Assembly: GCA_018819225.1 (NCBI GenBank)
Contig: JAHJQN010000004.1
Coordinates: forward strand, 194,813-258,812
Reading direction: 5' to 3'
Length of the DNA stretch: 64,000 nt
Source of the DNA: Candidatus Micrarchaeota archaeon
Lineage (GTDB): Archaea; Micrarchaeota; Micrarchaeia; Norongarragalinales; SBBD01
Shown here: piece after piece, positions 6,045-61,563 of the stretch
Numbering within the stretch: the first letter of the stretch is position 1
How the letters are laid out: each line of letters begins with the position of its first letter
Translations under genes and position numbers: made by a program
Notes under the pieces: generated by a model
The model's input: the letters and a program-made list of their open reading frames with translations, nothing else
Database searches by the model: none
What the model was told of the DNA's origin: nothing

Positions 6045-6174
6045 AGCCCCCGGCGAGAATCGAACTCGCGACCTCCTGTTTTCTCGCTCTTGCTTTTTTG
6101 GTCGAGCTTTTCTTAAAGAAAAGGTCGGGTGGCAAGGTTACGAGACAGGCGCTCTTCCGCTGAGCTACGGAGGC
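6045..6174 (-). tRNA. tRNA-Thr(CGU) with ~57-nt intron at canonical 37/38 position
   Basis: Reverse complement reads GCCTCCG-TA-GCTCAGCGGAAGAGC-G-CCTGT-CTCGTA[intron]A-ACAGG-AGGTC-GCGAGTTCGATTCTCGC-CGGGGGC-T; acceptor, D, anticodon and T arms all pair; intron 3' region (GCAAGAGCGAG) pairs with anticodon-loop/exon (CTCG..CTTGC) as expected for BHB. Confidence 0.75.
6098..6129. repeat. palindromic T-rich hairpin motif copy 1 (TTGGTCGAGCTTTTCTT-AA-AGAAAAGGTCGGG), inside tRNA-Thr intron
   Basis: 8-9 bp stem CTTTTCTT/AAGAAAAG; same motif recurs at 6204-6240, 7584-7622, 7842-7882. Confidence 0.6.
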
Positions 6175-6203
6175 ATAAATGTTTTTTCAAATGCCCATTT
6201 CAT

Positions 6204-6240
6204 TTGGCGGAGCTTTTCTTTATAAAAGAAAAGGTCCGCG
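6204..6240. repeat. palindromic T-rich hairpin motif copy 2 (TTGGCGGAGCTTTTCTTTATAAAAGAAAAGGTCCGCG)
   Basis: Perfect 9-bp stem CTTTTCTTT/AAAGAAAAG extended by GCGGAC/GCTCCGC; lies between tRNA-Thr and a 21-nt partial copy of its 5' end. Confidence 0.6.
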
Positions 6241-6244
6241 CTTC

Positions 6245-6265
6245 CTTCCGCTGAGCTACGGAGGC
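6245..6265 (-). repeat. 21-nt partial duplicate of tRNA-Thr 5' end (acceptor + D-stem/loop)
   Basis: cttccgctgagctacggaggc identical to 6154-6174. Confidence 0.7.
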
Positions 6266-6304
6266 AACTTTATTTTTTATGAACCGTTTGTTTTAAATGG
6301 CAAT

Positions 6305-6353
6305 GGGGGGTAGGGGCGACCCGCGTAAGGGGAACTCCCCTTGGAGGGGGTCC
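6305..6353 (+). ncRNA. GC-rich structured element copy 1 (GGGGGGTAGGGGCGACCCGCGTAAGGGGAACTCCCCTTGGAGGGGGTCC)
   Basis: Two hairpins (GGG-GCGA-CCC GNRA-like; AAGGGGA-AC-TCCCCTT); second copy at 48061-48108 with two compensatory base-pair changes in the second stem. Confidence 0.45.
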
Positions 6354-6520
6354 TGGGGTGCGGAGGCATTCTGACAACAAAATGCGCATTGTTTATGGAC
6401 GGCTTTTGTTTAAAAAAACGTTGGATACTGGATCCGGGGATGCAACCAGACATTTAATAATATTCAGGCGCTCTTTTCAATCGTATTTCACGAACGAAAT
6501 CAAGGGAGGCTGATAAACGG

Positions 6521-7105
6521 ATGCCACACAAATGCGTCAAATGCGGAAAATTGTATCCGAACATGGCGCCAGAGCTCATGAAAGGCTGCGAATGCACGTC
6601 CCGCATCTTCTTGTTCTTGCGCGAAAGCCAAGTCAGCGTCAAGGAGACCATGGAGTTGCTGCAGGAAGAGAGCCAGAAGCTCGTGGAAGACACGAAAGCC
6701 ATTCAAGAACTCGCCGAAGCCACGCCCATCACCATAGAAAAAATCGAGCTGCCTTCCGTACCCGTCAAGTCCATGGTGGAACAACAGGACGTGCACGGCA
6801 AGCCCCACGTCATTCGAGTACAAGAAAAGAAGGATCCTGAAAAAGCCGTGGATGAAATCGAGGAAGCGGACATGGAATCCGATCAAGAAGATGACACGGA
6901 CGGGCTCGTGGACGGGGACATGGAGAAAACCGTTTTACCCGTTGACGCGGACGGAGAACCCGTTGAAAACATCACCATCCTGGAAAAGGGATCGTACGAG
7001 CTCAACATCGAGTCACTCATGGCGGGTAACCCGCTCGTCATCCGAACCGAACGCGGAATATTCTACATACGCATTCCGACGCCCGTCAACCAAAGGAATC
7101 GGTAA
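6521..7105 (+). CDS. Zn-ribbon domain protein with acidic C-terminal region
   Basis: N-terminal C-x2-C ... C-x-C (HKCVKCGKLY...GCEC), acidic low-complexity middle; ends overlapping next gene start (ATGG). Confidence 0.5.
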   Translation: MPHKCVKCGKLYPNMAPELMKGCECTSRIFLFLRESQVSVKETMELLQEESQKLVEDTKAIQELAEATPITIEKIELPSVPVKSMVEQQDVHGKPHVIRVQEKKDPEKAVDEIEEADMESDQEDDTDGLVDGDMEKTVLPVDADGEPVENITILEKGSYELNIESLMAGNPLVIRTERGIFYIRIPTPVNQRNR

Positions 7106-7433: not shown

Positions 7434-7557
7434 GGGCCCGTAAGAGAAACCATCTCCGGGACGCTCAGCTTGGATAGAGCGATTGCCTCCTAATCACTCG
7501 CGGATTGCAAGTGGAGGGGAAAGCAATAGGTCGTGGGTTCGAATCCCACCGGGCCCG
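7434..7557 (+). tRNA. tRNA-Arg(CCU) with ~29-nt anticodon-loop intron and an unusual 20-nt insert between acceptor 5' strand and D stem
   Basis: GGGCCCG...[20 nt]...GCTC-AGCTTGGATA-GAGC-G-ATTGC-CTCCTA[intron]A-GCAAT-AGGTC-GTGGGTTCGAATCCCAC-CGGGCCC-G; acceptor strands complementary; canonical T loop. Confidence 0.6.
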
Positions 7558-7583: not shown

Positions 7584-7634
7584 TGGTCGAGTTTCCTTCC
7601 CAAGAAAGGTCGTTCAGAATCCCGACCGGGCCCG
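7584..7634 (+). repeat. hairpin motif copy 3 plus degenerate partial copy of tRNA-Arg 3' end (GGTCGTTCAGAATCCCGACCGGGCCCG)
   Basis: TTGGTCGAGTTTCCTTCCCAAGAAAGGTCG followed by T-arm-like + acceptor-3'-like sequence sharing ACCGGGCCCG with tRNA end at 7547-7556. Confidence 0.55.
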
Positions 7635-7673: not shown

Positions 7674-7790
7674 GCGGAGGTCGCATAGTGGCTATTGCGG
7701 CAGCCTGCTATCTTTTTGCAGCGAAGGCTGCGGAAGGTTGGAAAGCTGTTGGCGCTTCGCGCCTCGTGGGTTCGAGTCCCACCCTCCGCG
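7674..7790 (+). tRNA. tRNA-Ser(GCU), class II with long variable arm and ~16-nt intron
   Basis: GCGGAGG-TC-GCAT-AGTGGCTA-TTGC-G-GCAGC-CTGCTA[intron]G-GCTGC-variable arm (GGCGC-TTC-GCGCC)-GTGGGTTCGAGTCCCAC-CCTCCGC-G. Confidence 0.75.
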
Positions 7791-7841: not shown

Positions 7842-7897
7842 TTGGTCGAGCTTTCTTTACAAAGAAAGGTCGTTCGGAATCCTTACCCTCCGCGCTA
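7842..7897 (+). repeat. hairpin motif copy 4 plus degenerate partial copy of tRNA-Ser 3' end (GGTCGTTCGGAATCCTTACCCTCCGCGCT)
   Basis: TTGGTCGAGCTTTCTTTACAAAGAAAGGTCG (8-bp stem) then sequence sharing ACCCTCCGCGCT with tRNA-Ser 3' end. Confidence 0.55.
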
Positions 7898-46405: not shown

Positions 46406-47677
46406 ATGGCAGATAAACCGCATCTGAATCTCATTTTTACGGGTCACGTGGACCACGGTAAGTCGACGCTAGTCGGCCGCCTGTTGTACGATACAGGCGC
46501 ATTATCCGAGAACGACCTCCGCAAGCTTAAGGAGGAAGCCGAAAAAGTTGGAAAAGCGACTTTCGAATTCGCTTTCGCTATGGACCAACTCAAGGAAGAG
46601 CGCGAACGAGGCGTCACGATCGATATTGCGCACAAAGACTTTCACACGCAAAAGTACTACTTTACGATCATTGACGCGCCTGGACACAAGGACTTCGTCA
46701 AGAACATGATTACGGGGGCATCGCAAGCCGACGCAGCCGTACTCGTGTGTTCAGCGAAGGATGGGGTGCAGGCTCAAACCATCGAGCACGCGTTCTTGCT
46801 GAAAGTGTTAGGGGTACAACAATTCATCTTCGCGATCAACAAGATGGACGCCGTCAATTTTGATAGTGCAAAGTACGAGGAAACGAAGAACGCCTTGCAT
46901 ACAAAGCTCAAGCCCATGGGATACCCCGTGGACAAGATCGCCACCATTCCCGTGAGCGCGTATACGGGAGACAACGTGGCCAAGAGAAGCGAGAAAATGG
47001 CGTTTTATACGGGACCGACGTTCATCGAGGCGTTGGACGCGTTGAACATTCCCAAGAAGGCTACGGACAAGCCATTGCATCTCCCCATCCAGGAAGTGTT
47101 CACGATCACGGGACAAGGAACGGTTCCCGTCGGCCGCGTAGAATCCGGAATCATGAAACCCAACCAGAAAGTGATTATCATGCCGGAAGGCTCGATTGGG
47201 GAAGTGAAAAGCATTGAAATGCATCACCAGCAGCTCGAGCAAGCGGTTCCCGGAGACAACGTGGGATTCGCGTTGAAGGGAATTGACAAGAAAAGCATTC
47301 GGAGAGGCAGTGTCGTAGGCGAACCCGCGAACCCGCCGACCGTTGTCGAAGAGTTCACCGCTCAAATCGTGGTGTTAAACCATCCGACCGCAATCGGTAA
47401 GAACTACACGCCGGTATTCCACCTGCATACGGCTCAAGTAGCGTGCGCAATAACGGAGATCCTTGAAAAGAAGGATCCCAAGACCGGTCAAACCATGCAG
47501 AAGAATCCGGACTTCCTCAAGACCGGGGATGTAGCGATCGTCAAGATCAAGCCCTCGCGCGCCATCTCGTGCGAGAAGTACTCGGAATACCCTGCACTCG
47601 GCCGGTTCGCCATGCGCGACATGGGTCAAACCGTGGCCGCAGGAATTATTCTGGACGTGGTGCCTCGAAAAGCTTGA
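46406..47677 (+). CDS. tuf: translation elongation factor EF-1alpha
   Basis: [26 protein letters not shown] motifs. Confidence 0.95.
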
Positions 47678-47749: not shown

Positions 47750-48055
47750 ATGAACCGCGCTCGCATCAAACTCGAAAGCAAGGAATACACGGACTTGGAC
47801 GCGGTCTGCGTTCAAATCAAGGATATTGCCAGGAAAGCGGGCGTTGAGCTCAAGGGACCCATTCCACTGCCGACAAAAAAACTTCGCATCTCTACGCGGA
47901 AGACGCCGTGCGGGGATGGAAGCGACACGTACGAAAAGTGGGAAATGCGCGTGCACAAGCGCTTGATCGAGATCAAGGCAGACGACCGCGTGCTGCGCGA
48001 CATCATGCGCATCCGCATTCCTGATAGCGTCCACGTCGAAATGCTTCTAAACTAG
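47750..48055 (+). CDS. rps10: 30S ribosomal protein S10
   Basis: RIKLESKEYTDLDAVCVQIKDIARKAG...THKRLIEIKA typical S10; tuf-rps10 adjacency. Confidence 0.9.
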   Translation: MNRARIKLESKEYTDLDAVCVQIKDIARKAGVELKGPIPLPTKKLRISTRKTPCGDGSDTYEKWEMRVHKRLIEIKADDRVLRDIMRIRIPDSVHVEMLLN

Positions 48056-48060
48056 TTTAC

Positions 48061-48108
48061 GGGGGTAGAGGCGACCCGCGTAGGGGGTGGAACCCCCTGG
48101 AGGGGTCC
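48061..48108 (+). ncRNA. GC-rich structured element copy 2 (GGGGGTAGAGGCGACCCGCGTAGGGGGTGGAACCCCCTGGAGGGGTCC)
   Basis: Same architecture as 6305-6353; second hairpin AGGGGGT-GGA-ACCCCCT carries two compensatory pair changes relative to copy 1. Confidence 0.45.
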
Positions 48109-48114
48109 GCAGAT

Positions 48115-48168
48115 ATCATGCGCATCCGCATTCCTGATAGCGTCCACGTCGAAATGTTGCTTAACTGA
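48115..48168 (+). pseudogene. displaced duplicate of the S10 gene 3' end (last 17 codons + stop)
   Basis: 41 nt identical to 48003-48043, then ATG TTG CTT AAC TGA versus ATG CTT CTA AAC TAG: same peptide IMRIRIPDSVHVEMLLN* with synonymous changes only; out of frame with rps10. Confidence 0.7.
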
Positions 48169-48198: not shown

Positions 48199-48735
48199 CT
48201 ACTTCTTTTCGTTCATCAGCTTCTGGACGACATCATCCGACGTCGTGAAGCGGGCAAACTTTTCAGACTCCTTGACCTCCACGGCTTTCTTTCCCGCTTT
48301 TTTCTCGGGAGTCCTCGAGAAATAGAAGAGCAACGTTGCCGCGGAAACGGAGAACAATAGGAGTGAAAGCGTGAGGTTCAACTGGGCTTTCGAGCCCATT
48401 CCTAACGGTTCCTCCTCCTCACCCAAAATGTCATTTAACTGGGATTGCGCCTCCACGAGCTTGTCATACGCTTCCTGCTGTCGTCCCTGCGCTTTCAATA
48501 GTTTCGCGTGCGCCAGCAACACCTCCACTTCCGTTATTTGCTCGCCGCTATCTTTTGCCGCGCGTATAGCGGATTCGACTTCCACTTGCGTTTCCTGAAG
48601 CTCTTCAGCAGTCAACGCCCCCGTCAATGAAAGGCGACCTCCTCCAGGAGTTGCAATATACGCGTCATAGATCAAATAGAGTCCTGCAAATGAGGAGAGG
48701 AAGAAGAATATCAGCACGACGCTTTTGACGTTCAT
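48199..48735 (-). CDS. membrane protein with N- and C-terminal TM helices and coiled-coil/TPR-like middle
   Basis: Hydrophobic segments at residues ~6-24 and ~115-135; last gene of the giant-protein co-directional set. Confidence 0.45.
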   Translation of the reverse strand: MNVKSVVLIFFFLSSFAGLYLIYDAYIATPGGGRLSLTGALTAEELQETQVEVESAIRAAKDSGEQITEVEVLLAHAKLLKAQGRQQEAYDKLVEAQSQLNDILGEEEEPLGMGSKAQLNLTLSLLLFSVSAATLLFYFSRTPEKKAGKKAVEVKESEKFARFTTSDDVVQKLMNEKK

Positions 48736-51201: not shown

Positions 51202-54200
51202 TCATGGTTCAATGGGAACTCCTGCGGATTGTCGCAGGGTGTTCAATGCTTCAGGATACTTCGTATCATCAAACTGTTTTTGCGCCACAGGAATCGCGTC
51301 TTCCACAGCCTGCGGGCATCCATCGTTGATACACCATTCGCGGAAACGCTTTAATAAAGCCTCCACTGCCTCTTTCGGCGATGCTGGAACCAAAGTCACT
51401 GCGTTCGTAACCGTTGCACCCGTGACCGTCGTGAAAACAGGTGAACGGAAGTCCAGTGGATCCGAGTAAGAATGAACAAGAGAAGGATCGGGAACAAACG
51501 AAGAGGCAACAGGAACATTAGGATCAAACATCGACGTAATGAAATAATCAGGGGACACTCCTTTGTTGAAAGAGGTCACTAAATTGTATTGAGGAATTCC
51601 GGCCAAAACCGTTCCTTCAGTAAGATAAAGGCACGCGTGTTCGGAATCCGGACACAATTCTTCCGTGTCCACCCGGTTCGCGCATTCATTCAAATCCTTT
51701 TCATTGCGGAAACAGTATTCTTTCATGGAAGCGGCTTGGCCTTCCTCATTATGGTATACGACGAGATGGTTCCCGAAACGGTAATCCAATTCAGCGCGCA
51801 CGGGACGCACTTCCGTGTAAAACAGCAAGGGCGCAACCAGTGATCCTATCAAGCTGATACCCCGGAAACTTTTCTTTGTAAACGACGACTCCTTAACTGC
51901 GTTCCCAACGGAGCGGAAACGTCCGGAGCGGGAACGAACCGCATCGAAATCATCGGCAAGCGTTTTGGATGCTTGTTCAACGGCATCGTCGAATTTAGTC
52001 AGGGTTCTAGCTTTCGTGGCGCGATCGCGTACGTGCTCAATGATTGCGCGTTCTTCCGTATTTGTCAATGCGCCACCCAAAGCATTCCGCAGTTTACCGT
52101 TCAATGAAGTGCGAACAAATCTGCCACTTCCGCCTTTGATTTCATTGACGGCCACTTCATCGTAATTGCGCAATACGTTTGCAAGTTCGTCGGGGGTGAG
52201 AATGCGTCTGAAATCGAGGTCAATAGGTCCTGCAGTTTGAGAATATAATTTCCATAATTCATCCGACACCGCTGACGGTCGGGCATCGCTCCTAAGGAAA
52301 GCAGATAACGTTTCCGATTTTCCATATAAATTATAATTTGGAGGCAGACGATTATTAATTAATTCATCCACTACTTTTTCTCGTATATTTGGATCCCTAT
52401 CAAGGGCGGTGAATAAACTTCTAATCTTGGTATTGAATTGATCTTGCGTCGGGGCTATTGTCCGAGATACGTCGGTGAGTTCATTATAGAGCGTCGTACG
52501 AGTTCCGGGTGCGGTAAGATCCACCCAGGCATTCATTCGCGCCCGTCCGTCCGCTCCAGAAAGGAGTTGAGTGAAATCATTGACGCTGCTTCTTGGCACA
52601 AGAGCAGTTTCTCCCGGGGTATGAATCAAGTTGACGAGCGCACGAGAAATCGTTGAGGAACTAATCGTGCCGCCGGCTGTTTGGGTATAACGAGTGACCA
52701 AAGCGTCCGCGAATTCAAGCGACATGCCTTGGTGCATGAAGTAATCGGTCATAAACGCTCGGCTGCCGAACGGACGGAATACTTTGGAAGCGCCCGCCAC
52801 AATGGGAACCGTAGCAGGAGTAATACCTGGTGCGAACTCGCTATCTAGGACCGTATTCGAGCCTCCGAGAATGGCACTTAATGCACCAGTAACCGCCAAA
52901 TTACCGATCAATTCATTACCTCCTCGACGTGCCACCTGACTGGCAAATGTACTAGAGAGTAAGCCGCTGGCTCCAGTTATTGAATTGACTCCAGGAACAG
53001 CACCGGTTGGAAGAACCAAGTTAAGATAGAAATCAGTTAGAGCAAATGTTTGGAACGAAATACATGCATTGATTCCTTCGCATATTCCGACGCGTGAAGG
53101 CGCAAGGGAATCAACGGCAATGGATGCGGTACAACCCGTGATTCCGGTAACCAAGCTGTAAACGCCCTGCGCAAGACGAGGGGCGAATACGGGAGCGGCA
53201 AAAATGCTTCCGACAATTGCGACTAATGCGCCCGGAGCACCAGCTAATAATAATGCACCGGTTGCTTTTCCTCCGTTTTCAATGCAGGCACCCGTATCTT
53301 CGAATGGAACCGCCTGTGATAAGGGGTAATCGTTGTATCCGTAAAGGGTGTTCAACAGCAAATCGGCGTGCCGTTCATCATCCGCGCTGGGCGCTTCGCG
53401 GTATGGACCAATAGAGAATATGCGGAATTTTTCAAAAAATCCAGTATCCCCTTCCCGTTTCTTATTGGTCCAAATAATGTGCGGATTCGGTTCTCTTCCA
53501 ATGATGACTTCCGGCGTGTCCGCGGTCAACAGGTTCGTGTTGTACAATTTTTCCTCGCATGCAAGAAAACGAGTTGGAGAAGGCAAAGAGCTGTCCACAT
53601 GCATTTCAATGAATGAAGATTTCAACCACTCCTCCTTATTAGGTCGTAGCTCACATAGACCCAGGCGCGCAGTTGCAATGTAAATACCGCATTGATCGGC
53701 AGTACCCGTTGCAGTATATTTGATTGATTTCTTGCCGCCGACAAAACCGAATTCACCTAAACCTTCTTGGAAAGCGGTTTGAAGATCGTTCAAATTGATT
53801 TTCGTGTTCGCCATTTGAACGACAACGCTTTTACGGTAATCGCGGTTGAATGCGCGAACAACGGGATCGGATGGATTGCAGAACTTATTGAGCTCTTCAT
53901 TGAATTTTTCGTCTTCTTGTGTATAGAAGGTTGTTATGAGTTGAGCCACTTGTGCTCCGAATCCCTTGAAAGCTGCTTTCGCCTCATCTGCAGTGCAGAA
54001 GTTTGTGGAACAGGGTATGACCGCGTCAGCCACTCGAATAATCCCTGACGGAACAACAGAAACTGGAGTGGTTGGAGCACTTGCAGGCGGAACAGATGGT
54101 GCAGAATGTGCCGGCACTGCTGGTGCGGGTGTTCCCGGGGGCACACCACTCGCAGGCGTTAATGATGGAGGCATAGCGGGTGGATCGCGGAGTATAAGAT

Positions 54201-57200
54201 CCCCAAGCGGTGTGCCGGAAAAGAGGTTTTTCATAGCAGGGTTCGCGGGATCGATTTCATACGATTCAACATTTACGAACTTGGAGTCCGTTTTTCCGTT
54301 GATGGATCCTTTGAACTTGATCTCCATGTATCCACTCCACGGGCGCAGAGACTCGCATTCTGAAATATAGCCTTCTCCGGCACGCAACGAAGTGGGAATG
54401 TCGCATCGTAAGAAACCGGTTCCGTTAGCGGAATAGGTTTGATAGTTAAGCGTCACCGACTCATCGAGATTGTTGGCCATGGAAATCCATCGCTTGTGAC
54501 CCAAATCCTTGAACACCAGTTTTTGGGGCGCCGTGGTTTTCACGTTTTGTTGCGAGCGGTCATAATTTACGTAGAAACCACCCAGCGCGTCTCGAAGTTG
54601 AGCGCGAAGAGAGCCTACGCACGAACCGGTTTTCTCGAAGGTGAGAATCAGTTTAGCGGGAACGAATTGCGCGCCGCTTCCCCGGTAATCATAAAATATT
54701 TTGACGTCGCCTTCCAAGGGACCGAGTTCATCCAACTTCTCTTGAGGCAACAAACAGCCATCATCATCCGTATACTGTTGAGGTACTTGAACCGAGAACA
54801 AGAATTGCTGCACCTGGCAAGCCGCATCCTCATTCTTATCCTGTTGGGCTTTACCCGCCAGAATCATGTGCGCGCCTTCATCCCAAGCGCTGGGTTTGCG
54901 AATCTTTCGAATCACGCCCTCCAACTCGGAACTAATGGACTCGCCAGAAAGCGCGTTACGGCTTTCCGCAGTCCAGCTCTTCTCGTCCTCATCACCGGAA
55001 ATATCCATGTAAACGCTTACTTCCGAAGGAGCGTCATTCAATACGCAGAATCCTTTCTCCACGATTCCTTCCACGTTCGAATCCGTGAACTCAAAGGTTT
55101 GCTCCTTGGGCTTGATGCGAATGGGCACGAAATTATCGGTAATCATGGCGAAGCCATCCGGATTGCGGGATGGACGCTCGCATAAAATCAAGGTAGTCTT
55201 CGAATCGGCGGGAACGGAGATCTGCTGGGGTTCGTCCTTCTCTTTCGGAAACGGATTCATGTCAGAGAACCAAATCTCTTTCACTTGAGGCAATTGATAA
55301 CTCGTTTCGCCGCGGACATTGATTTGTATTTCGCGGCACCCCTGCAAGTCAACGCGTTTCGTCATGCTATGGATTTCCGTGCTCACCTCCGGCGCGTCCT
55401 CAGGCAATAAGTATACGACGTCATCCGTGAACGTGGCGTGGAACTTGTATTTCTTGTCCGTATCCTGGCAGATGCGCGTCACGAACCGCGTGTCGACCGG
55501 AATGGAGAACGTGACCGCGTCTTCCGTTTCATCCGCTTTTTCGACGTCATCCGCCATCAAACGCATGCCATTGAATTCAAACAAATCATTCTCCGCGTTG
55601 TCTTCCATTGCGAGCTCCGTGCAAATGCTCAAGCGGTAAGACTGCATGATGTCGCCATTCTTTTCGAACGGTTCCTCAAGGAACTTGTCGAATGTTTCTT
55701 GCGGAACATTCACGTCCACATCATTCGGGAAGTGATGAAAAACAAAGTCAACGCCTTGCAAGCCCGCAAGGTCCTCATCGATCATGACGAACGTGATGGG
55801 AACATTGCGTTCCACGAACAAATCCTTGTACGGTTCAGCGGCTTGCAATACCGGTCGGAAGGGAAGCTCAACGTTGTAACTGTACGTCGTAACCGCGTTC
55901 TTGACCACGCGGGCGTTCACCGGAAAGTGCAAGACGACATCCTGCGGGAACGTGACCGTAAAGCGGTCCTCCCCGAAGCGTTGTTCCTCTTCCTGTAACA
56001 TGCTGTAATCGAATACGATGGACACGGATGGCGGTACTTTGAGGTCGCGGCGTTCGCCGAATTCCTCATCTTCAATCGAAGCGCCTTTGACGAGCATGCG
56101 TTGGTTGGACGGGAATTCTAACAGATGGCGGTCATCCTTTACGCTATAGCGCGCGTTGACGTTGAACGGCAACGTCATGTCGAAACCGACTGGCAAGCGC
56201 TTTTCATTACCCGTCATGCCAAAGTCAGGGCGACCGAAAATAATTTGAGTGAGAGGCATGACTTCGACCGTCCGGGAACCGTCCGGCGCTTTCAAGCCCG
56301 CACGAGCGACTCCGTTCAAGAAACTCATTTCCAGGTAATCCGTGGAAATGCTTTTCGCGCGCACGCCATCCGGAGCAATATTCAAGGATACTTCAGGGCC
56401 GTCGCGTACCAAGAATAGGACGCGGAAAGGCAGGCTCAGAACGATCTCGCCGTTATAGGTTCGTAATGCGAACGGCGATGGAATGCGCAAGGCACTACCG
56501 GCTGGAATCGTGACGCGTTTGAAATCACGCGCGTCCATTGAAATAATGGCATCGGAAGGCAACGAAATCGTGTTTCCGCTTTGGAATTGAAGGGCTTTTC
56601 CTCCGCTAAAACTGTCTTTCTTGACGCGAATGAATTCCTCGATGATGAACGTGGCTTCAACGGGGAACTCGACTTCTAAAGCGTCTTGAGAGGAAATGAT
56701 GGGCGTCAACGAAATCTGAATGGGTTGGTGCGCGTTGACGCGGACGCGGCGTTCTTCACCCGAATAGGGGCGATATTGAGTGGAACTCGTCGGGTACTTG
56801 ATGTCGAAATCGTTGATGGAAGCCGTTTCAAAAGCCCCTTCGCGAGCAAACTCGGTTTCCGTTGGGAAATCGAGGTATACGACGACGGGCAAGCGGAGTT
56901 CCCAACCGTATTGCATGAAGTTGCGCTGGTAAGGCGATAGGTAACTACGGTACGTATTGTAACCTTGCACGGGAATGCGTCGCGCATAGCGGGCGGGAAC
57001 TTCAAAGAAAGCGCCGGAAGGAATGACGGCCACTAGACTGCCGCCTCCTTGCTCGATGGAAAACGTGAAGGTGCTCGAGTAAGGCGAGGATTGTTGCAAA
57101 TCGTTGAGATCTCCCACGCGAACGTCTGCATCAAACAGCATGGTGTCCCCGCTCGGAAGCTCAATGAAAGTCGAGCCATCCGGATTAGTATGCGTAAGCG

Positions 57201-60200
57201 TATTGGGAGGCAATTGCAAGACGATTTGCATGGGAAGCGATATGCGCACGCCTCCACTCACGCTTTTCACTTCGGGTTCGACGGCTTGGCAAGTGTGATC
57301 AATGGCGGCCTCGCTTTCTCCGCATTCGAGGAACTCGCACACTCCCGAAGAACAGATTTCATCATTGGAACATTCATCATCGGCAACACAGCCGGGTTCA
57401 GGGGTCGGAGTGAACGTGACTCCTGCCGGATAGATTTCCACGCGAGTGGAAAGGCAAGCGAGATTGCCGGCTTGTGCGCGAACCTCGTAACGACCCTTCG
57501 AACTGTAGTAACAGGAGGCCGTGCAGCTACCCGTGGTTCCCGTGCAACTCACGGCATTGGATGTGCGGCCGTTACCGCAATTTACGACAACGACGTTTGG
57601 GGCGCGATTCAAGTCATAATAGTCAACAGTAATGGTACTCGTCCCTTCTTCCTCAATGCGGTTCGGATCCGCATTTAATGCACAAGTGGGTACTAACGGA
57701 GTGGGAACCGGAGTCGGCGTCACGAATTCCGTTGGTTCGGGAGTTGACGTCGGATCCTCATCGCCCGCATGCACGTCCCTGCAATTTTCGGATGAAGACG
57801 CGGTATACGTAAGTCCGACGCGCTTGCGGGACGTGATTCCGAGCGTGCTCGCGTAAAGCGTTAATGTACCGTCGCGTTCATCGTCCTCTAGATCGCACGG
57901 ATCCACGGGATACGCGCGCGCCACCACCTTAAATTCCGCTGAATCCCCTGCGGCAATGGTTTGCGAAAGCGGTTCCATGTATACGTTGGAGAGCGTGCTC
58001 TGGTAATTGATGAGAATGGGATAATCGGCGTCGTTGGTAACGACCATGGTTTGCGTGTCACGGGGTTCGCGAGGCGGTTTCAAGGTAAACTGCAGGGAAT
58101 CAGCTGAAGCAGACCACAACGCCTCCAAGTCCTGTTGGGTAAACGAAGAGGCGATCGTGAACGGAACGGATTCCTCTTGGTCGTAGCTGCCCAAGCGAGC
58201 TCGTACGAGGAGGCGGCCGGAAACGGTTTCGGATAGAGTGTTCGCACGAGCTGCAACGGGCAAAATAGTATCGAGAATGCGGGCTCGCAAATTGATGGAT
58301 TGGGTATCGCGCGCTTTCAAACGGAAGGAGGAAAGGTCGACGGATACGTCCGTATACTGGGGGTTGCGTCCAAACTGCATTTGAACGGAAACGCGTACTT
58401 CATTATCCAATAGGTTAGTGACGCTGAAACCTTGTTCTTGATTGTCGGTCGAATCAACGGTTAATGACAAGGTTTCCCCTTCCACGGAAATGAGTTCATC
58501 GCCAGTGACGCGCAGGAAACCGCGTTTGACCTTAAAGCCTTCGGCCTCGACCTGGTAGGTGACGGTCCCGATCGCGACGGGGTGAATGCCTTCCACGCGG
58601 TACTGGGCACTGCCATCCCGACCCTCGGAAAAAACGCCTTCAATGATGGCGCCGCGGAGGGCATCATTCCCGTTTCCAACGGATACGTAGGCATGAGAAA
58701 CCGGCAGCCCCAATGAATCTTCGACGGCAAACGTCACCATGTTGTCTTGAAGTGCTTGCAATGAAGACGGACGATTCGTCACTTTGAGATCGGGTTTGGT
58801 GCCGACCACGCGGACGTACAGCGAACGAGTGATCACGGTTTCCGCGTTGCGTACTTGAAGCTGCAATGCCACGTCATTCGAGAGACGCTGGGCTTGAATC
58901 AAGAACTGGCCTTCCGCATTGTCTTCAGAAGTCGTAATAGTGATCAGTTCCTGATCGCCTGCGGAACGCGCCACCGCGCGACTTCCACCGGATGAACCTT
59001 CCGTTAACGTGATCGATTCGTCGAGAGCAGATGAAGAAAGCTCGACCACGGTTCCTCTTGGAGCCGCTACGTGGAATTGAAGCGAAAAGGTTTCGCGAAT
59101 TTCCGCCTCATAATTATCCAAAGCGCGCCCATTTTGTCCTTCGAAGAAGTAATCCAAACAAAGATCGTCTTCACATAATCCACCAAATGAAATGGGTGCG
59201 GTAATCGTTTTCATGTTCGCGAGAATGGAAGATGTCGAAGCGGTTTCGTCGAGGGGATCGCGAAGGGTTTCGCGCGCGGTGTCGAAAGCCGAACGGTATT
59301 GCAACATAGCCGTTCCATCGGAAACCGCTTTGGTTCGCACAAACACCGCGATTTCCTTCGTGCCTTCAAACGGTTGGAACGTGAAATGAACGTATTTATA
59401 CGCGGGCTGGAATTCCGGATCCGCGAACTCCAATTCCTCCGCAGGCGTCGGGGAAGGCGTTTCCGTAGGGACATCCGTAACGATAACGGGGGACAAATCG
59501 TATAACGTTCCTTTTGTGACGAAAGCCGTGCCGGCTTCGTAACCAACGATTTCAACGAGCTCGTTATCCAGCGAAGAATCCGCTGAACCGACGCGCACGT
59601 GAACTTCAGCCCTTGAAACGTCGACATTGGGGCGAGTCAACAAGAATTTGGCTTTGTAAACCGTTGAAGGCGATAACGAAGAGGCTTTGTTGCTCTTCAA
59701 ATCATACAATCCCTGGAAAACGATTTGCGATCCTCGGGCGCCGGAAGGCAGCAGTTCAAACGAATCCCGATTCGTGATCCCGGGAATGACTTCAAATTCA
59801 GACGATAGCAAGGTTTCATACCCTTCCAGGGAAACGCGAGCAACATAAAACCCTTCCAAGATATCCACCGCGCATTTACCGCGTTCCGTGACGCACGAAT
59901 CCTCTTTAATAAACGTTCCGCCGGAAAACGATAATTCAACGAGGGCACCATCCAGAGATTGATTCGTAAAGTAATCATAAACGGAGACGACGAGCTTGGC
60001 TTTTCCGGGCTGCAAGATCACTTCAATCAAGTTGACTTCAGGTTCTTCCCCGGTTCCGTCAATCGAAATCAATTCCGGATTACTTTTTCCTTCCCGGCCC
60101 GCGAAACTGGCTTTGACAAAAATGCGTTCCAACGGAACATCGGGAAAATCAGCGGATCCATCGGCGGACGTGAACTTTTCGGAGATGCCCATGGGTTTCC

Positions 60201-61563
60201 CGTTCTCCCAGAATAATCCAACCGAAGCCTCGGGAATCGATTCCAGGGATTGGTCAATCACATTCACTTCCACTAACGCCGAATTTTCGTCGTTCGCCTT
60301 AACTAAAACCATTTCGTAACGTTCTCCGCGACGCGCCTCTTCAACGAACGCCGGAAGGAAACCGAACTTGTAAGCCGTAACATAATAGGTTCCGGGGTCC
60401 ACGTTCTCGAATGCGGCCGAGCCATTGCTCGGAATCTGTTCCTCAATGCGAGCCCCCTTGCTGTCATAAAGCCGCACAATCGGGTTCAACACATGGGTGC
60501 CGCCTTCATCGTTCACTTGAACCATGATGGACCGCTGAGCCGACTCGGGAATCGCGTGCAATGAGAGTTCAATAACCGTATCCTTTTCCACGAACACGGG
60601 AATGGAGGATAAGGACTCAAAACCGGCCGCTCGCGCGGATACGATGATGCGGGTGCCCAACAGAACGTCTTGAACCGGAATCCGGCCGTTTTCTCCGGTG
60701 AGGAGATTCGTATACAAGGCCTTTCCAGAAATGGCATCTGCAATGTCTACGCTGGCATTCGCAATGCTTTCATCGTTCGCGTCATCCGATACCAGGACGC
60801 GGACTTTTCCCAAAACGTCTCGATCCTTCGGAAGCAAAACAAAGGGCGTGAAGACCTCGTCACGCGTCCCAACCGAAATTTCACGGGAATCGTCAACGTA
60901 CCCTTCAGCGGAAACAATGATTTTATACGTGTTTTCGGGCTCGACTTCAAACGTCACCGATGAACCGGATTTTGAATCCTGAACGGGCACCAGCGTATCG
61001 GAATCCACGATCCAGAAAACCGCCGAAGGCGGGCCTTGAACCGACAAACTGATGCTCACGGTTTGTTTAACGACTTCTTCCACTAAACGTAAAGAAACAA
61101 TGTTATCGGAAGCGTCTTTCTCGATGGTCACGGTCTTACCCGCCGTAGAAAACTCGAGCGTTTCCTCATCCGAATTCAATGCCGAAATGCGGAACGTGAC
61201 CCCGATCGGCACATTCGAAAAAAAGGCGACGCCCTCGGAATCCGTGATGCCCTCCAATCGTTCGTGAATGCCTTCCGTGTCCACCAAATAAACGGCGGCA
61301 TTGATGACGGGAAATCCGTCGGCCGTCTGAATTTCGATGGCGACGTCCGATTGCTGAGGCCCTAACAGCGCGGTCCCCCCCAGTAAAAAGAATCCGGCGC
61401 CGCCGATCAGAAGCAGCAATATTAAAACAAACGCGGGTAGCGACGGAATGCCTTTTTCTTCAAGGGTTTCGGCAACGCTCTTGAACGGCAGTCCTTTTTC
61501 CTCGCTCCAATCCAAGAAATTGGCCCAACCATCCTGGATTTTTTCAAATAAGTCTTCTAGCAT
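51202..61563 (-). CDS. giant (3453 aa) signal-anchored multidomain surface protein: CarboxypepD_reg/Ig-like repeat array, Cys-rich modules, Pro-rich linker, ~950-aa C-terminal module with glycine-zipper hydrophobic segment
   Basis: Single uninterrupted frame of 10.4 kb; N-terminal cytoplasmic acidic 40 aa then TM (LPAFVLILLLLIGGAGFFLLGGTALLG); >=6 repeats of the DG.P...A.V.L.D..G....TD..G.A.F..V..G.Y pattern; PT-rich linkers; DPPAMPPSLTPASGVPPGTPAPAVPAHSAPSVPPASAPTTP linker; GALLLAGAPGALVAIVGSIFAAPVFAP GxxxG-rich segment. Confidence 0.8.
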   Translation of the reverse strand: MLEDLFEKIQDGWANFLDWSEEKGLPFKSVAETLEEKGIPSLPAFVLILLLLIGGAGFFLLGGTALLGPQQSDVAIEIQTADGFPVINAAVYLVDTEGIHERLEGITDSEGVAFFSNVPIGVTFRISALNSDEETLEFSTAGKTVTIEKDASDNIVSLRLVEEVVKQTVSISLSVQGPPSAVFWIVDSDTLVPVQDSKSGSSVTFEVEPENTYKIIVSAEGYVDDSREISVGTRDEVFTPFVLLPKDRDVLGKVRVLVSDDANDESIANASVDIADAISGKALYTNLLTGENGRIPVQDVLLGTRIIVSARAAGFESLSSIPVFVEKDTVIELSLHAIPESAQRSIMVQVNDEGGTHVLNPIVRLYDSKGARIEEQIPSNGSAAFENVDPGTYYVTAYKFGFLPAFVEEARRGERYEMVLVKANDENSALVEVNVIDQSLESIPEASVGLFWENGKPMGISEKFTSADGSADFPDVPLERIFVKASFAGREGKSNPELISIDGTGEEPEVNLIEVILQPGKAKLVVSVYDYFTNQSLDGALVELSFSGGTFIKEDSCVTERGKCAVDILEGFYVARVSLEGYETLLSSEFEVIPGITNRDSFELLPSGARGSQIVFQGLYDLKSNKASSLSPSTVYKAKFLLTRPNVDVSRAEVHVRVGSADSSLDNELVEIVGYEAGTAFVTKGTLYDLSPVIVTDVPTETPSPTPAEELEFADPEFQPAYKYVHFTFQPFEGTKEIAVFVRTKAVSDGTAMLQYRSAFDTARETLRDPLDETASTSSILANMKTITAPISFGGLCEDDLCLDYFFEGQNGRALDNYEAEIRETFSLQFHVAAPRGTVVELSSSALDESITLTEGSSGGSRAVARSAGDQELITITTSEDNAEGQFLIQAQRLSNDVALQLQVRNAETVITRSLYVRVVGTKPDLKVTNRPSSLQALQDNMVTFAVEDSLGLPVSHAYVSVGNGNDALRGAIIEGVFSEGRDGSAQYRVEGIHPVAIGTVTYQVEAEGFKVKRGFLRVTGDELISVEGETLSLTVDSTDNQEQGFSVTNLLDNEVRVSVQMQFGRNPQYTDVSVDLSSFRLKARDTQSINLRARILDTILPVAARANTLSETVSGRLLVRARLGSYDQEESVPFTIASSFTQQDLEALWSASADSLQFTLKPPREPRDTQTMVVTNDADYPILINYQSTLSNVYMEPLSQTIAAGDSAEFKVVARAYPVDPCDLEDDERDGTLTLYASTLGITSRKRVGLTYTASSSENCRDVHAGDEDPTSTPEPTEFVTPTPVPTPLVPTCALNADPNRIEEEGTSTITVDYYDLNRAPNVVVVNCGNGRTSNAVSCTGTTGSCTASCYYSSKGRYEVRAQAGNLACLSTRVEIYPAGVTFTPTPEPGCVADDECSNDEICSSGVCEFLECGESEAAIDHTCQAVEPEVKSVSGGVRISLPMQIVLQLPPNTLTHTNPDGSTFIELPSGDTMLFDADVRVGDLNDLQQSSPYSSTFTFSIEQGGGSLVAVIPSGAFFEVPARYARRIPVQGYNTYRSYLSPYQRNFMQYGWELRLPVVVYLDFPTETEFAREGAFETASINDFDIKYPTSSTQYRPYSGEERRVRVNAHQPIQISLTPIISSQDALEVEFPVEATFIIEEFIRVKKDSFSGGKALQFQSGNTISLPSDAIISMDARDFKRVTIPAGSALRIPSPFALRTYNGEIVLSLPFRVLFLVRDGPEVSLNIAPDGVRAKSISTDYLEMSFLNGVARAGLKAPDGSRTVEVMPLTQIIFGRPDFGMTGNEKRLPVGFDMTLPFNVNARYSVKDDRHLLEFPSNQRMLVKGASIEDEEFGERRDLKVPPSVSIVFDYSMLQEEEQRFGEDRFTVTFPQDVVLHFPVNARVVKNAVTTYSYNVELPFRPVLQAAEPYKDLFVERNVPITFVMIDEDLAGLQGVDFVFHHFPNDVDVNVPQETFDKFLEEPFEKNGDIMQSYRLSICTELAMEDNAENDLFEFNGMRLMADDVEKADETEDAVTFSIPVDTRFVTRICQDTDKKYKFHATFTDDVVYLLPEDAPEVSTEIHSMTKRVDLQGCREIQINVRGETSYQLPQVKEIWFSDMNPFPKEKDEPQQISVPADSKTTLILCERPSRNPDGFAMITDNFVPIRIKPKEQTFEFTDSNVEGIVEKGFCVLNDAPSEVSVYMDISGDEDEKSWTAESRNALSGESISSELEGVIRKIRKPSAWDEGAHMILAGKAQQDKNEDAACQVQQFLFSVQVPQQYTDDDGCLLPQEKLDELGPLEGDVKIFYDYRGSGAQFVPAKLILTFEKTGSCVGSLRAQLRDALGGFYVNYDRSQQNVKTTAPQKLVFKDLGHKRWISMANNLDESVTLNYQTYSANGTGFLRCDIPTSLRAGEGYISECESLRPWSGYMEIKFKGSINGKTDSKFVNVESYEIDPANPAMKNLFSGTPLGDLILRDPPAMPPSLTPASGVPPGTPAPAVPAHSAPSVPPASAPTTPVSVVPSGIIRVADAVIPCSTNFCTADEAKAAFKGFGAQVAQLITTFYTQEDEKFNEELNKFCNPSDPVVRAFNRDYRKSVVVQMANTKINLNDLQTAFQEGLGEFGFVGGKKSIKYTATGTADQCGIYIATARLGLCELRPNKEEWLKSSFIEMHVDSSLPSPTRFLACEEKLYNTNLLTADTPEVIIGREPNPHIIWTNKKREGDTGFFEKFRIFSIGPYREAPSADDERHADLLLNTLYGYNDYPLSQAVPFEDTGACIENGGKATGALLLAGAPGALVAIVGSIFAAPVFAPRLAQGVYSLVTGITGCTASIAVDSLAPSRVGICEGINACISFQTFALTDFYLNLVLPTGAVPGVNSITGASGLLSSTFASQVARRGGNELIGNLAVTGALSAILGGSNTVLDSEFAPGITPATVPIVAGASKVFRPFGSRAFMTDYFMHQGMSLEFADALVTRYTQTAGGTISSSTISRALVNLIHTPGETALVPRSSVNDFTQLLSGADGRARMNAWVDLTAPGTRTTLYNELTDVSRTIAPTQDQFNTKIRSLFTALDRDPNIREKVVDELINNRLPPNYNLYGKSETLSAFLRSDARPSAVSDELWKLYSQTAGPIDLDFRRILTPDELANVLRNYDEVAVNEIKGGSGRFVRTSLNGKLRNALGGALTNTEERAIIEHVRDRATKARTLTKFDDAVEQASKTLADDFDAVRSRSGRFRSVGNAVKESSFTKKSFRGISLIGSLVAPLLFYTEVRPVRAELDYRFGNHLVVYHNEEGQAASMKEYCFRNEKDLNECANRVDTEELCPDSEHACLYLTEGTVLAGIPQYNLVTSFNKGVSPDYFITSMFDPNVPVASSFVPDPSLVHSYSDPLDFRSPVFTTVTGATVTNAVTLVPASPKEAVEALLKRFREWCINDGCPQAVEDAIPVAQKQFDDTKYPEALNTLRQSAGVPIEP

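Follow-up and report, generated by a model that had tools for sequence, protein, structure and literature searches.

A second rps10 3′ end beyond a GC-rich hairpin in a Micrarchaeota genome: a candidate protein-less cassette at gene ends

In a 64,000-nucleotide (nt) stretch of the genome of a Candidatus Micrarchaeota archaeon (assembly GCA_018819225.1, contig JAHJQN010000004.1, positions 194,813–258,812 of the forward strand; the whole stretch is called the window below), the gene for ribosomal protein uS10 (rps10) is followed by a second copy of its own 3′ end. The working end (copy 1, c1) and the downstream one (copy 2, c2) bracket a GC-rich hairpin (element E), and the locus raises the question of how a conserved gene came to carry its end twice, in copies that differ almost exclusively at silent positions. 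The duplication recurs in other Micrarchaeota and is missing from the closest kin of some of them, E forms a repeat family with a common fold, and the polarity of the arrangement is fixed. We favor a reading in which a cassette encoding no protein entered by recombination within the gene end, duplicating its target and displacing the original end, and give this a probability of roughly 0.55.

The rps10 end and its second copy

The last 19 codons of rps10, DIMRIRIPDSVHVEMLLN plus stop, are encoded by two 57-nt stretches, 47999–48055 and 48112–48168. A repeat scan recovered them as a 55-nt direct repeat (47999–48053 against 48112–48166) of 93% identity and 113-nt spacing, which includes an exact core of 42 nt (48002–48043 = 48115–48156); with 0 such matches expected from 100 dinucleotide-preserving shuffles, a chance origin is ruled out. 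A preliminary description of this DNA had noted the duplication, and the repeat, the core, and the translations confirm it with small corrections: the identical run measures 42 nt rather than 41, and the first copy starts at 48002 (ATC), or at 47999 with the Asp codon, rather than at 48003. Six nucleotides differ between the copies, each difference being silent or an exchange of stop codons (GAC/GAT, CTT/TTG, CTA/CTT, and TAG/TGA). The last four codons read CTT CTA AAC TAG in c1 and TTG CTT AAC TGA in c2, as first reported, and the claim of synonymous-only differences held, the GAC/GAT pair at the left edge being a further silent case. Copy 2 was also correctly placed past the rps10 stop codon and out of frame with the gene, as the offset of 113 nt equals 3 × 37 + 2. 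Nor does c2 belong to an overlapping gene; among the open reading frames (ORFs) of the window, none of at least 30 amino acids (aa) ends at 48168, and a convergent ORF at 48199–48735 excludes c2.

Between the copies lie the bases TTTAC and the hairpin itself (48061–48114), which folds as had been proposed and has 72% GC in a genome of ~50% GC; the insert proper amounts to 71 nt. The leftmost bases of c2 are degenerate (CGCAGAT, from 48108, against CGCGAC). The ending AAC TGA TTC, presumably the native one, is present in two relatives with a single end (L004 and L206) and in the c2 of a third (L003). The features of the locus, all on the forward strand except the last, are as follows:

47750–48055 (+): rps10 (ribosomal protein uS10), 101 aa, the target gene; Pfam Ribosomal_S10, 2.4e-29
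47999–48055 (+): c1, the working rps10 3′ end, DIMRIRIPDSVHVEMLLN and stop; repeat scan and translation
48002–48043 (+): 42-nt core, equal to 48115–48156, the duplicated target; exact match, 0 expected by chance
48044–48060 (+): putative left part of the insert (CTT CTA AAC, stop TAG, spacer TTTAC); the differences between c1 and c2 cluster here
48061–48114 (+): GC-rich hairpin element E, whose last 3 nt overlap the left edge of c2; fold and covariance model
48112–48168 (+): c2, intact but displaced rps10 3′ end, out of frame; repeat scan and translation
48157–48168 (+): c2 tail TTG CTT AAC TGA, then TTC; presumed native rps10 end, from the endings of relatives
46406–47677 (+): aEF-1alpha (tuf), upstream context; Pfam GTP_EFTU, GTP_EFTU_D2/D3, and GTP-eEF1A_C
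48199–48735 (−): convergent ORF of 178 aa that matches no family and bounds the locus on the right; synteny kept in relatives

To place the locus among its relatives, the loci of the closest S10 proteins were fetched, and species-representative genomes and JGI metagenomes were scanned for the tail peptide; the related sequence searched came to ~1.2 Mb plus the window, and the two clades recognized, A and B, hold three or four genomes each. The layout of rps10 end, short spacer, GC-rich hairpin, and second rps10 end was found in six other Micrarchaeota assemblies. L002 and L003 are filled (S10 91% and 87% identical to that of the window; offsets of 135 and 124 nt), as is L205, which is truncated in that its contig stops inside the hairpin; three filled sites of clade B, with the tail DIMRIKIPSSVNVEMTLG, have offsets of 159 (L005), 161 (L125), and 150 nt (L198). 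All seven rps10 units, including that of the window, thus span 113–161 nt, and the six complete ones, in both clades, share the same junction between E and c2. Other archaeal S10 loci and ~35 other Micrarchaeota-like loci had no downstream copy (best background match ≤25/42).

Across orthologous tuf-rps10 regions, filled and empty sites alternate among close relatives. L004 has a single end, although its S10 protein is that of L003; L206/L207 and L208/L209 are also empty, and L097, L140, and L167 are empty despite carrying the clade B tail peptide. Along tuf-rps10, the metagenome contigs of L097 and the filled L125 do not differ for 1000 nt or more (100% identity) and then diverge abruptly inside c1, after ATGCGGATTAA, with homology returning ~1 kb beyond that point (oriented L125 554–1718 and 1722–2766). 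The breakpoint at the gene end marks a recent recombination, so that in natural populations the rps10 end acts as a recombination junction. Compared to L097, L125 also carries an additional ~760 nt, whose 233-aa ORF belongs to no known family; past this segment, homology picks up in a RelE/ParE-like gene. In L125, c2 is followed by a partial second E 5′ motif.

The region downstream of rps10 is a variable island more generally. In L003 (3538–4505) and L206 (965–1132), a nucleotidyltransferase/HEPN gene pair is inserted there, preceded by a conserved palindromic AT-rich motif, GTTCACA...TGTGAAC. In L110, a more distant Micrarchaeota relative, a tRNA-like sequence (GCCGGGGTGGCAGAGTGGTAATGCGCC...) lies ~190–260 nt 3′ of rps10, an arrangement that recalls the tuf-rps10-tRNA order in other archaea.

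The silent character of the differences extends to all seven sites, where c1 and c2 differ at 47 nt in 43 codons and 42 of these codons are changed silently or from stop to stop; the single replacement, Ile to Asn in L005, sits at the extreme left edge of c2. Under random substitution, the joint probability of such a silent-only pattern is ~1e-26 (product over sites). Within a clade A genome, the copies differ at 3–5 positions, compared to 9–18 between genomes; lineage-specific silent states are common to both copies, and the differences between c1 and c2 fall at the repeat edges, next to the insert. Clade B copies differ at 6, 14, and 8 positions, still silently. An intact stop codon occupies the same c2 position at all sites, with all three stop codons in use, and none of the rps10 sites examined has a decayed c2. 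The left edge of c2, where it abuts E, is degenerate, and its frame is broken in the window and in L003 (1-nt insertion), as expected of an inserted cassette because this junction would never be translated.

Which copy is the older can be judged by sequence comparison where an empty relative allows it, and there c2 appears to hold the native state and c1 the new one. Set against the single end of L004, c2 of L003 differs at 2 nt and c1 at 5, all of them in the last 9 nt beside the insert, and the c2 copies of clade B are closest to the empty end of L167.

The hairpin as a repeat family and its other targets

E represents a repeat family not described before, with a fold that is conserved and with copies at the ends of essential translation genes. 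Its fold comprises a G-run, an outer stem, a 3 × 3 internal loop, and an inner GGGGG/CCCCC stem (−29 kcal/mol, z about −2.3), and compensatory changes are seen in 5 of its 15 pairs among three clade A genomes. The rps10 E of the window scores 75.9 bits against the covariance model. A model built from the three clade A hairpins (R1), made without the second copy in the window, found that copy at 6307–6359 (+) with 36.7 bits (E-value 2.7e-6, filters off), its 5′ 23 nt being nearly identical to the rps10 E; since the copies of L167, L205, and the second window site were added to a later model (R2), only R1 scores are independent. In L167, R1 found a copy at the aEF-2 3′ end, some 3 kb before rps10. 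A model of three clade B genomes, in which the element is 94% identical compared to 82–88% for the rps10 genes, matched a diverged copy upstream of tuf in L158. Copy density was 2 in the 64 kb of the window and 1 in 20 kb of a relative, with no further E in 20 kb around rps10 of the genome of L002.

The 2-kb contig of L205 has an E copy at its very start, and its other end also stops in a hairpin, a pattern expected because repeats break assemblies. In its first copy (1–330), the apical loop is expanded by 57 nt, and the sequence that comes next, GATTTTGCTGGATGGAAAAAC, looks like an aEF-2 end that has decayed (compare with GATTTCATGGATTAAAAAAC of L211); should this hold, it would be an example of a decayed displaced copy.

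Rfam 15 held no family for E: nothing reached gathering thresholds, and the sole match was mir-929 (16.8 bits against a threshold of 56). A K-turn, H/ACA, C/D, tRNA-like, or ribozyme identity was rejected on these grounds, by-eye inspection for a K-turn being unconvincing. We also considered whether E might have diverged from the stretch of rps10 coding sequence that immediately precedes the repeat (AAGGCCGACGACCGCGT...), and dropped this given near-identical copies at a tRNA gene and aEF-2. An origin-recognition box, suggested by the OapC gene and the GC-skew minimum close to the second copy, was set aside because neither the rps10 nor the aEF-2 copy lies at an origin.

Part of the spacer accompanies the hairpin. 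A motif opening with a stop codon, TRATTCRCG.AC...AAAGGGG, is common to the rps10 units of L002 and L003, the aEF-2 unit of L167, and L158, and the left end of the window spacer, TAGTTTACG, resembles its TRATTCRCG. The left part of the spacer therefore belongs to the insert and travels with E.

The aEF-2 gene of L167 (Pfam EFG_III/IV/C) provides the second target. Here, E stands between two copies of the last 21 nt of the gene, GCGAAAGACTT[T/C]ATGGACT[G/A]A, 96 nt apart and with silent differences only, and the unit contains an rps10-type flank, TGATTCACG. The relative L210, at 97% identity in aEF-2, has an empty site, and its end has the TTC and TAA of L167 copy 2. Some Micrarchaeota aEF-2 proteins (P0127 and P0151) are annotated by their sources as containing inteins, and the gene is therefore targeted by more than one kind of selfish element in Micrarchaeota.

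The third target is a tRNA gene near the start of the window, with the following features:

6045–6174 (−): tRNA-Thr(CGU) with a 60-nt intron, whose 5′ end is the target duplicated beside the second E; Rfam tRNA, 54.2 bits
6198–6294 (−): internally deleted, degenerate tandem duplicate that takes in the tRNA 5′ half, some of the intron, and the promoter flank; local alignment score 78
6307–6359 (+): second E copy of the window; model R1, 36.7 bits
6353–6369 (−): third copy of the tRNA 5′ end plus flank (CTGGGGTGCGGAGGCAT against CTGAGCTACGGAGGCAT), abutting E; alignment

This locus (6045–6369) looks like the product of repeated displacement events at one tRNA gene. A further decayed copy at 6389–6475 was rejected, as its alignment score of 36 falls below the shuffle maximum of 39.

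In all cases, the order on the strand of E itself is working gene end, spacer, E, and displaced copy. E is sense to rps10 and aEF-2 and antisense to tRNA-Thr, which points to an element acting at the DNA level and not to a signal in a host transcript. The duplicated length varies with the target, from ~57 nt (rps10) to 21 nt (aEF-2) and 9–17 nt (tRNA). Such variation across different targets argues against one integrase with one core; homology-dependent insertion fits better.

The surroundings of the second E copy have features of their own. Three tRNA genes (6045–6174, 7458–7557, and 7674–7790) have long introns (~31–60 nt) and were found by Rfam, all three having been missed by ARAGORN. Similar 36-nt segments, with a T-arm-like GGTCGTTCAGAATCCCGACC, follow two intron-bearing tRNA genes (7592–7627 and 7852–7887), and this part of the window may hold further unusual or split tRNA genes. 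The cumulative GC skew has its minimum at ~4–6 kb of the window, and an ORF at 6521–7105 has a match to Pfam OapC (origin-associated protein); the second E copy may be near an origin of replication.

How the second end may have arisen

In the reading we favor, the cassette would consist of the last few codons and stop of a gene, a spacer with the left end TRATTCRCG, the ~55-nt hairpin E, and a few target-like nucleotides left of the duplicated segment. Its point of entry would lie in the terminal segment of a gene that is both conserved and essential (rps10 at this locus, aEF-2 or a tRNA at others), and we infer that it enters by homology-dependent recombination, whether of the Campbell or "ends-in" type or as an att-like exchange. 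The core of the target would then end up on both sides of the insert, copied from the recipient, with donor sequence surviving only at the edges. The upstream copy, completed by last codons and a stop that probably arrived with the insert, would form the working end, and the native end (c2) would be moved beyond the hairpin. Divergence would be silent because donor and recipient would each have contributed a functional gene end, and cores would be identical, with host-specific silent states, because the core was copied from the recipient at insertion. The same account covers the edge differences, the filled/empty polymorphism, the degenerate left junction, and the stacking seen in L125 and beside the tRNA gene. 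E itself is probably the active or selected module, and could be a protein-binding or recombination-prone hairpin.

The preliminary description had proposed an integrating element that supplies a replacement gene end. The displaced native end and the supplied replacement are supported by the L003/L004 and L167/L210 comparisons, and, as in integrase-borne elements, the flanking direct repeats correspond to the target gene end while the single end of empty relatives resembles the distal repeat (c2 of L003 against L004, c2 of L167 against L210). We found no evidence, however, of attL/attR site-specific recombination of the integrase type at these sites, and no recombinase gene in or near the insert in the 64-kb window of the 709-kb contig. 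Of the two options that had been offered, a miniature element or the stub of a larger one, the first is favored by the unit of 113–161 nt at seven rps10 sites and by the hairpin with part of the spacer at other genes.

Several observations weigh against entry of such a cassette. Searches of the large window ORFs with Pfam and PHROG found no recombinase, integrase, transposase, reverse transcriptase, or nuclease in or near the unit or elsewhere in the window. Neither the 42-nt core, the back-translated tail peptide, nor either E consensus matched a viral contig, and neither a free copy nor a plasmid source was found. The E|c2 junction shared by the six complete rps10 sites may reflect a single old origin with vertical descent, in which case the intact c2 would need gene conversion or selection, not recency, to explain it. 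Continuing gene conversion explains the identical cores of clade A equally well. Of the two tails of L002, that of c1 looks the closer to the native tail of L206. Finally, with ~1.2 Mb searched, the copy number and target range of E are poorly sampled.

The main alternative, possible though in our view less likely, is a history in which the repeat arose in place. E would have inserted once, long ago, 3′ of rps10 with a long target duplication, or a tandem duplication would have occurred at E, followed by vertical inheritance, repeated loss by recombination between the repeats, and gene conversion keeping c1 and c2 alike. Mutations of c2 would be exposed to selection once copied into the essential c1, and only silent ones would survive, at the repeat edges. 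The one E|c2 junction at the rps10 sites of both clades speaks for this, as do the identical cores within a genome with their lineage-specific silent states (window, L002, and L003) and the edge position of the clade A differences. So do the homology of the spacer to the flank after c2 in L125 and L005, as expected of a duplicated end plus flank, the partial second E 5′ motif of L125, and the plain tandem duplication, with no hairpin at its junction, at the tRNA locus. However, the copies of L125 differ at 14 of 57 nt, all silent, which indicates no homogenizing by conversion, and yet its c2 is intact. The changes that can be polarized (L003/L004 and L167/L210) are all on c1 beside the insert and none on c2, the rps10-type flank in the aEF-2 unit implies movement between loci, and an old duplication sits poorly with the lack of decayed c2 copies. 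A further tentative possibility, of similar weight, is that E units are homology-driven, protein-less selfish DNA with silently recoded ends, and/or that c2 is itself selected as a homing arm, a guide, or an alternative gene end. Were the units driven by homology in this way, insertion would be harmless and the homology arms would always match potential hosts; with an invader of this kind or a selected c2, the termini of essential genes in reduced genomes would be maintained in two selected copies.

A role for c2 in RNA or translation, through bulge-helix-bulge splicing, ribosomal bypassing, or its own translation from a conserved ATG, would also explain the near-exclusively silent divergence and the stop kept at one position in all sites, and every rps10 c2 has an ATG at its left, with a Shine-Dalgarno-like GGAGG/GAGGTG 11–12 nt upstream in clade A, a type of motif that the organism uses. 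The window tRNA genes do have long introns, and the Micrarchaeota phylum has a broad-specificity splicing endonuclease. We nevertheless consider such a role improbable. A bulge-helix-bulge scan of homologous positions at the seven sites gave best scores of 8–10/12, at differing positions and within the background maximum; with no conserved motif and with the E at 6307–6359 opposite in strand to the tRNA gene, an archaeal bulge-helix-bulge intron was rejected. Spliced and unspliced mRNA would encode the same protein, leaving no evident need for splicing, and past the hairpin, the sequence is no more prone to fold than its shuffled versions. A separate 16-aa peptide from the c2 ATG is weakened by aEF-2, where the ATG-started equivalent is only Met-Asp, and read-through or frameshifting into c2 was rejected since the offsets (113, 135, 124, 159, 161, and 150 nt) fall in all three frames and each of the three stop codons is in use. 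Least probable of all is that the locus is the remnant of a full-sized integrated virus or plasmid after internal deletion, or an artefact joining two strain variants. A repeat of 42–57 nt at a conserved gene end is typical of archaeal att sites, and closely related strains do occur in the metagenome (L097/L125). However, independent deletions would not repeatedly leave the same ~70–100 nt, with homologous spacer and hairpin, as found at seven rps10 sites that come from separate samples and different assemblers and also at other genes; at none of the loci examined did a second tail copy flank a larger element. An assembly artefact is ruled out by the recurrence of the architecture with different sequences in NCBI, ENA, JGI, and Logan assemblies.

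Likeness to known elements, and the wider window

Integrative elements and genomic islands, both archaeal (SSV/pTN3-type) and bacterial, target the 3′ ends of tRNA or protein genes, with an attP that carries a replacement end. E units resemble them in the direct repeats at a gene end, the gene kept intact, the displaced native end, the filled and empty sites, and the tandem arrangements. In contrast, the insert here is ~70–100 nt long, encodes nothing, and came with no integrase that we could find, and the same hairpin occurs at three or more targets with duplications of differing length, which one site-specific integrase would not give. Casposons are Cas1-dependent archaeal transposons with terminal inverted repeats, a fixed ~14–15 bp duplication, and cas1 and polB genes. 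As they prefer tRNA and aEF-2 3′ ends, they are similar to E units in the choice of target and in a duplication that includes the gene end; however, E units have none of these hallmarks (no cas1, polB, terminal inverted repeats, or ~14–15 bp duplication) and their duplications run from 9 to ~57 nt, so we rejected this identity. Miniature inverted-repeat transposable elements would share the dispersed copies, of which there are two in the window and two in L205, but no inverted repeat spans the unit ends and the length of the target duplication is not fixed.

Closer in form are REP/BIME, Correia/NEMIS, and Rickettsia palindromic elements and the GC clusters of yeast mitochondria, which are likewise short, structured, GC-rich, multi-copy, and protein-less, and, like GC-rich palindromic repeats of this kind, E is sited at gene ends and breaks assemblies. 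E differs from them in being accompanied by a coding-intact duplicate of the neighboring gene end, and in its low copy number. In mechanism, the nearest parallel is "ends-in" gene targeting, or Campbell integration, a laboratory or plasmid phenomenon that shares the order of target fragment, insert, and target fragment, the recipient cores with donor edges, and possible loss by recombination between repeats. To our knowledge, a natural, recurrent cassette of ~100 nt using ends-in integration has not been described, and literature searches returned no description of such a cassette in the searchable literature. The homing spacers of CRISPR-associated transposons and the guide RNAs of TnpB/IscB also offer a likeness, namely a structured RNA-like module followed by a copy of a conserved gene end. 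Here, however, no Cas, TnpB, or transposase gene is nearby, and the "guide" would be at most 57 nt, end in a stop codon, and, in clade A, match the resident gene; with their defining genes or features absent, a CRISPR/omega-RNA guide and an IS200/IS605-type end were both rejected. A diversity-generating retroelement was likewise rejected, as c1 and c2 differ by silent changes of several kinds (C/T, T/G, A/T, and G/A among them), and the Pfam matches include no reverse transcriptase.

DPANN archaea such as the Micrarchaeota have tiny genomes, and we know of very few mobile elements in them. If the cassette reading is true, a ~100-nt insert that enters the ends of rps10, aEF-2, and a tRNA without harm and turns over between close strains would be among the smallest gene-targeting inserts described, and E cassettes would offer a handle on DNA exchange in the Micrarchaeota. 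The silent-only divergence of a copy that is not obviously translated poses a testable puzzle, with recent origin, gene conversion, and function as possible answers. In practical terms, E breaks metagenome assemblies, and its pseudo gene ends could mislead annotation and marker-gene phylogenies.

Turning to the wider window, the genes upstream of tuf-rps10 include eIF2-gamma, Cbf5, SecY, and a ribosomal protein gene block (Pfam). The S10 protein is identical to an entry named 30S ribosomal protein S10, Candidatus Micrarchaeota, and the identical protein sits on a 709-kb MEGAHIT contig of ENA assembly ERZ27247117. The first 4 kb of the window have 35–37% GC, compared to ~50% elsewhere, and may be foreign DNA. 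A giant ORF at 51202–61563 (−) encodes 3453 aa and has a 3657-aa counterpart at the same relative position in L214, with faint Big_1/CarboxypepD_reg matches; its product probably belongs to a type of surface protein often found in DPANN genomes.

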